Below the pieces are notes generated by a model. The model was not told the DNA's origin. It was given only the letters and a program-made list of their open reading frames with translations, and made no database searches. Positions 13,230-13,555 of a DNA stretch of 64,000 nt are shown one piece after another; the first letter of the stretch is position 1; each line of letters begins with the position of its first letter. Made by a program: the position numbers and the translations under genes. The stretch spans positions 12,710,001-12,774,000 of the forward strand of contig OX597834.1 of NCBI GenBank assembly GCA_951406725.2. The letters run 5' to 3'. Source of the DNA: Octopus vulgaris (lineage: Eukaryota).

Positions 13230-13555
13230 TACTTGCATAGCCAGTGACTTGATCTGAGATCGTGTGCTGGAACGAAAACAATTACAGCGTGAAAGATGTA
13301 TATAAGTCATTTAAGAAACAAACACACAAAACCGATAGATTTACTTCAACATTTAAATTTAATTTGTCAAAATATTTTCGTCGCTTTGAGAGATCGCGAC
13401 CTGTTCGTGATGTAGCACGAAGTTTTGTCAGTGAACAGGTCGTGGTATCAAAGCGACGAAATTATTTCGACAAATTATATTTAAACGTTGAAGTGAATCT
13501 AACGGTTTTTGTGTTTTTCTTAAATAGCTTATAAACAACTTCCACGCTGCAATTA
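13230..13555. mobile_element. Diverged foldback element (imperfect ~125-bp arms 13280-13406 / 13433-13554) with hammerhead-like motif
   Basis: Arms are recognisable reverse complements; same extension-plus-inverted-arm layout as 4988-6071. Confidence 0.7.
13424..13474 (+). ncRNA. Hammerhead-like variant with G3:C8 core
   Basis: UUUGUCA-GUGAACA-G-GUCGU(gguaucaaa)GCGAC-GAA-AUUAUU-U-CGACAAA; the opposite arm preserves GUCGC/GCGAC, palindromic AAUAUU and UGACAAA. Confidence 0.55.

Follow-up and report, generated by a model that had tools for sequence, protein, structure and literature searches.

Hammerhead motifs with an inverted 3-8 pair in the ends of Penelope-like retrotransposons of Octopus vulgaris

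The base pair between nucleotides 3 and 8 is a textbook feature of the active hammerhead fold; in standard hammerhead numbering, it positions the 2′-OH of nucleotide 8. The inverted form of this pair, G3:C8, occurs in the literature that was searched only as a laboratory rescue mutant. A foldback in the 64,000-nucleotide stretch of Octopus vulgaris DNA analysed here (the window) raises the question of whether the inverted pair also exists in nature and whether the RNA that carries it cleaves itself. By combining the two arms of this foldback, the first-pass annotation had read a G3:C8 hammerhead at 13363..13474.

An inverted pair of truncated ends

The region 13223-13554 of the window is an inverted repeat with one arm at 13223-13406 (-) and the other at 13409-13554 (+). 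Its features are as follows.

13409..13554, + strand: right arm, a 3′ pseudo-LTR copy of Penelope-like family C with 90% identity to the intact copy L046 over 146 nt; it begins at the common 5′ point (the AG|AUG site) and lacks the tail of ∼60 nt
13223..13406, - strand: left arm, inverted and more 5′-truncated, with the full 3′ tail; 89% identity to L046 over 184 nt
13424..13474, + strand: decayed type I minimal hammerhead (G3 at 13431, C8 at 13436, A9 at 13437, extra G at 13438)
13439-13443/13453-13457 and 13458-13460, + strand: 5-bp stem II, followed by GAA

The inverted repeat, the G3/C8 core, the extra base and the 5-bp stem II of the original description are all present, but the complete motif lies in neither arm, as neither matched a type I hammerhead descriptor that allowed any Watson-Crick pair at 3-8. 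On the + arm, an A.C mismatch at 13468 disrupts the pair beside the predicted cut (13467/13468), and the palindrome of stem III is interrupted at 13462. The - arm retains the bases damaged in the + arm (13462 and 13468), but it reads down from 13406 and starts inside the core, so that G3, U4 and the 5′ half of stem I are missing. Because both arms are damaged and the descriptor matches neither, the motif as first read is a composite. That composite form is real at the level of the family, with 10 locus matches of exactly this form among 676 kb scanned, and three helices around the core, which the window copy does not have, are found in intact family copies.

That each arm's defect is absent from the other arm might suggest that the locus yields an active ribozyme by combining the two. 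The arms lie on opposite strands, however, and a single transcript across the locus is predicted to fold, through pairing of both arms, into a hairpin of −126 kcal/mol; moreover, a mispair sits beside the cut in the + arm, and the 5′ strand of the core is missing from the - arm. This reading is exceedingly improbable, and the idea of the locus itself as a ribozyme was not borne out. Judged from its sequence, the foldback consists of two truncated pseudo-LTR ends of a Penelope-like retrotransposon in inverted orientation, and the copy at this locus is predicted to be an inert fragment, an ordinary decayed repeat.

Family C, its sisters and a second G3:C8 motif

Longer copies of family C contain, upstream of the motif, a microsatellite-filled stretch preceded by a region coding for a reverse transcriptase (RT, with YVDD), a C-x3-C-x2-C linker and a GIY-YIG domain (Pfam PF01541, E 3.7e-5). 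The RT and the C-terminal GIY-YIG domain were found upstream of the motif in L165 and L169-L172. The family C RT was 55% identical to the database protein P0002, a named RT-domain protein of Octopus vulgaris, and a 97-residue stretch of this same protein matched a sister family in the genome at 100% identity. A full-length family C ORF was not recovered among the longer copies followed upstream, and a metagenome scan with the endonuclease returned four weak 32-residue matches. An RT frame continuing from the family C end in L059 was considered as a partner ORF and rejected, since it belongs to a separate family that family C adjoins at 1 of 25 loci. The linker, of the CX2-5CxxC type, points to a possible placement in the Neptune or Nematis clade. 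Statements on lineage made here are based on pairwise identities.

The 3′ ends of family C arms fell into two classes, full in 13 of 30 and ∼60 nt shorter in 14 of 30, and many arms are joined head to head, as at the window locus. An inverted pseudo-LTR (pLTR) with a tail is described for endonuclease-bearing (EN+) Penelope-like elements in the available text of PMC8557442. Since the two end classes and the inverted partial copies match that description, the arms are interpreted as the inverted pseudo-LTR and tail of such an element, and we are highly confident that the motif represents a hammerhead lineage residing in a Penelope-like pseudo-LTR. Donor-, branch- and acceptor-like sites were also present upstream of the motif in longer copies, and 15 of the 30 arms have their 5′ end no more than 5 nt from the AG|AUG acceptor-like point, a distribution that a start site fits equally well. 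No spliced junction was seen, none of the arms L230-L259 being joined to the putative upstream exon. In L014 (1221-1491), the two ends of the putative intron are mutually complementary over ∼8 bases.

Family C is a high-copy repeat, with 2,308 first-look candidates in the genome. The core 17-mer with C8 had 7,171 exact genomic copies and the 17-mer downstream of the cut had 10,742, the reversed control giving 0 in each case; with a base other than C at position 8, the core 17-mer was found 429 times. An unbiased sample was formed by the first 30 matches (arms) of the downstream 17-mer, which represent 24 insertions and were not chosen on the core. Of the sampled arms that cover the respective position, 22 of 24 have G3 and 24 of 25 have C8; U4 G5 A6, A9, G12 A13 A14, A15.1-U16.1 and H17 were the majority state, and the strict descriptor was passed by 7 of the 22 motif-spanning arms. 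Family C therefore has G3 and C8 in place of the type I consensus C3 and G8, with UGA, GAAA, G10.1-C11.1 and U16.1 all kept, an extra G after A9 and a helix III formed by an AAUAUU palindrome. Loop II varies between subfamilies while the core stays. For the intact copy L046, structure prediction yields stems I and II (z −2.5), helix III existing only as a palindrome. The hammerhead architecture arose in 0 of 4000 dinucleotide shuffles of the 206-nt end of this copy which, together with the reversed-pattern count of 0 against 7,171, argues against chance.

Among the rows listed for reads and contigs of two other organisms, no G3/C8 variants at 8% or above were found. A looser pattern (G3:C8 with an ACGU stem III) was not enriched genome-wide, giving 103 matches against 539 for the reversed control, and its commonest repeat, considered as a further G3:C8 family, is not a hammerhead. 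The pattern did surface old relatives of family C, at 3 of the 6 places examined. These relatives (L298, L299 and L300; 72-81% identity in gapped local alignments) keep G3:C8 and have a different N7 and loop II; in L298, stem II is retained and stem I still forms 6 bp through altered pairs, and the other two are decayed.

A subfamily of family C carries G3 and G8, so that no 3-8 pair is possible (L153, L154, L156, L162, L169, L171 and L172). It is frequent among the long copies clustered on contig C16 and includes several ORF-bearing copies. Position 8 was G in 38 of the first 100 of the 429 non-C8 17-mer matches, and 13 locus matches were G3/G8.

Two sister families, E and F, have endonuclease regions 50-55% identical to that of family C and hold the motif at the same place. 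In family E, the 3-8 pair is U3:A8 in 22 of 23 motif matches (20 loci), and the motif has 3 bp in stem I and 5 bp in stem II, together with U17, the extra G and an AAUU palindrome. In family F, it is C3:G8 in 35 of 36 matches (30 loci), and C9 replaces A9 in all 36. Family F is young, and a motif copy in each pLTR flanks its intact 1265-aa frame (L260, 1236 and 5813). Across the 3-8 pair and stem II, an alignment of seven rows from only these three families shows pairing in all 42 cells and two-sided changes in three of the six pairs; the count is confined to these positions because the alignment shifts stems I and III. The 3-8 position is thus a Watson-Crick pair in each family, as G:C, U:A and C:G, and is broken in the G3/G8 subfamily. 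The anticipated stem covariation was accordingly observed, across three families, for the 3-8 pair and stem II. The shared position of the motif in the sisters, with U3:A8 or C3:G8 and compensatory stem II changes, argues for a genuine hammerhead lineage and not a chance resemblance. Two further repeat families, at L173 (1774), L163 (647) and L136 (877), contain U3:A8 motifs with a palindromic stem III of 6-8 nt.

An alternative is that the locus is a MITE-like DNA foldback element whose palindrome resembles a hammerhead by chance. Its long inverted repeat is what such an element would show, the loose pattern was outnumbered by its control, and Rfam returned no hammerhead match for either the window copy or L046. 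Rfam also missed the canonical hammerhead at 5932-5973, however, and the arms are unequal 5′-truncated copies of one end, placed head to head and leading in longer copies to an RT and GIY-YIG ORF. With this ORF, the protein identity of the sister family, the shuffling result and the covariation between sisters, the foldback-element reading is largely refuted, and we regard it as very improbable. Over the whole window, Rfam gave 645 matches, the 150 listed being almost all microsatellite-driven microRNA. Long low-complexity tandem arrays (TA/CA/TG-rich) occupy ∼960-12450 and dominate both the repeat and the Rfam output.

The window contains further hammerhead motifs, as follows.

5869..5907, + strand: hammerhead motif with G3:C8 from Penelope-like family A, G3 lying at 5876; stem I has 7 bp, stem II 1 bp and stem III the sequence ACCGGU, with a GUA site
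G3 at 5267, - strand: inverted twin of the family A motif, located by descriptor
5932..5973, + strand: hammerhead of the canonical C3:G8 type belonging to a third family, B, and joined by splicing to the end of the family A exon (descriptor position 5936)
C3 at 5207, - strand: inverted twin of the family B motif, located by descriptor
58112, - strand: family B-related hammerhead with the canonical C3:G8 pair, stem II showing a compensatory change
36795: weak U:A match to the type I descriptor in the window scan

The GUGAACAG core noted earlier at 5876 is present, together with the stems listed above. It had been described as having entirely different stems, and this largely holds; older family A copies (L106 and L108), however, share the inner four stem I pairs (GUCA/UGAC) with family C. 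The element at 13424 had been called unrelated to that at 5876, a description that does not stand insofar as both motifs lie in the ends of Penelope-like retrotransposons. Family A has 258 candidates in the genome, with GIY-YIG fragments upstream, and its endonuclease gave no match to that of family C by tblastn at E 0.01. A relative of family A (A′, 53-58% identity) has U3:A8 and the same stem III. Because each G3:C8 family has closer kin with another pair, the sequences suggest that G3:C8 arose in at least two switches. Their comparison supports a natural G3:C8 hammerhead-type motif that is fixed in two repeat families with proteins not detectably alike.

The region 5143-6000 is an inverted duplicate of a spliced chimera, in which the family A exon 5790-5922 (AG/GTAA-bounded in genomic copies) is joined exactly to the family B acceptor. 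A single retrotransposed RNA thereby carried both hammerhead motifs, one behind the other.

Possible cleavage by the family form

The reading that we consider the most probable, with moderate confidence, is that the locus consists of decayed inverted ends of a Penelope-like element, that intact copies adopt a minimal type I G3:C8 fold likely to cut slowly and only as a dimer, and that the window copy is inert. Two motifs would pair through the AAUAUU palindrome to form helix III, G3:C8 would preserve the base pair that positions the 2′-OH of nucleotide 8, and cleavage after U17 would trim tandem or read-through transcripts.

No mark of cutting was seen in the sampled copies or in the pooled RNA reads. 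Among the 30 unbiased arms (24 insertions), none starts within 5 nt of the predicted cut and 29 span it. Most genomic copies were therefore made from uncut RNA, and cutting is likely not needed for copying. In RNA reads of a related organism (1,298 and 1,061 reads from two runs, both directions, ∼6% of each run), read ends showed neither a pile-up nor a dip at the predicted cut with all copies pooled. RNA ends at the predicted site, which the first-pass annotation had put forward as a check, thus failed to accumulate, a weak result given the pooling of all copies and the fact that an active Penelope hammerhead studied in PMC11167929 has no RNA-seq ends mapping to its cut site either. The UUU cleavage triplet had been considered unfavourable; it appears to be no special handicap, as U17 is common and Fig. 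S3 of PMC4209133 includes a UUU site from Crassostrea.

The principal rival grants the same element and ancestry and holds that the motif no longer cuts, the hammerhead-derived fold having been kept for its structure, for example as a signal to the element's protein or in RNA pairing; the drift of the core within the lineage would then reflect the loss of cutting. Several observations fit this proposal: C9 in the young and intact family F, the amplification of the G3/G8 subfamily, the derivation of copies from uncut RNA and a very weak helix III, the AAUAUU duplex being worth only −0.2 kcal/mol. Hammerhead mutants also insert normally in vitro in the available text of PMC11167929. The proposal sits less well with the 3-8 pair itself, which belongs to the active conformation (PMC8495972) and is maintained as three Watson-Crick pairs in three sisters and as G:C and U:A in a second lineage, or with the retention of UGA, GAAA, G10.1-C11.1 and U16.1. 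We regard loss of cutting as a substantial possibility that nevertheless falls short of an even chance.

Set against cleavage, as far as sequence comparison can tell, would be the uncut copy starts, the RNA ends, the spread of the G3/G8 subfamily, C9 in family F and the weak AAUAUU duplex. Set in its favour, by analogy, would be the maintenance of position 3-8 as three Watson-Crick pairs and the partial rescue of cleavage by a C3G/G8C double mutant of a Penelope hammerhead (PMC11167929). On balance, residual cleavage by the family form appears reasonably likely, and the most likely course would be cleavage that is slow, assisted by dimerization or protein, and not required for copying, a view held with the same moderate confidence.

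At the family level, a natural inverted 3-8 pair in Penelope-type hammerheads is a real finding, supported by the covariation between sisters. With G3:C8, U3:A8, C3:G8 with C9, and G3/G8, a natural series is at hand that poses the question of whether Penelope hammerheads must cut. Searches based on CUGANGA miss whole high-copy families. It is suggested, tentatively, that octopus Penelope-like elements carry active G3:C8 hammerheads of at least two independent origins, with sisters bearing G:C, U:A and C:G, and that CUGANGA descriptors miss thousands per genome, so that animal ribozyme content and claimed absences would have been miscounted.

Comparison with known elements and hammerheads

As an element, family C resembles the Neptune/Nematis-type EN+ Penelope-like elements (Craig 2021, PMC8557442) in its RT, CX2-5CxxC linker and C-terminal GIY-YIG domain with CCHH, and also in its inverted partial pLTRs, tail and insertion beside (TA)n. 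The tail is 30-40 nt in the elements described there, in contrast to ∼60 nt in family C.

As a ribozyme fold, the motif is closest to the minimal type I hammerheads of Penelope elements (Cervera and de la Pena 2014, PMC4209133), which are reported to have low activity as dimers and to include a U3-A8 variant. Shared features are the type I topology in a pseudo-LTR, the extra nucleotide between 9 and 10.1, G10.1-C11.1, a short palindromic helix III, H17 that is often U, and the presence of thousands of solo or inverted copies. By contrast, the extra base is G in family C (consensus H there), stem I is 7 bp (4-5 there), and G3:C8 is absent from the rows compared in Fig. S3 of that paper (56 motifs per its legend), which have C3:G8 and a few U3. 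The proposal of a distinct natural subclass with an inverted 3-8 pair is upheld for the pair, which is natural in two families, but not for the subclass, since the other features are those of the Penelope hammerheads in the available part of PMC4209133.

A compensatory change at 3-8 is also known from natural U3:A8 variants (Perreault 2011, PMC3088659; Schistosoma Cercyon, PMC4209133) and is found here in families E and A′. Those variants differ from C3:G8 by two transitions, whereas the family C pair is an inversion requiring two transversions; the available portion of PMC3088659 contains natural U3-A8 only. A natural G3:C8 was not found in the hammerhead literature searched, and earlier cases may exist. 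As an engineered variant, G3-C8 appears in PMC3884650, and the C3G/G8C double mutant (PMC11167929, PMC8495972) embodies the identical core change with partial rescue of cleavage. There it is a laboratory control, whereas in families C and A G3:C8 is the majority state of natural families.
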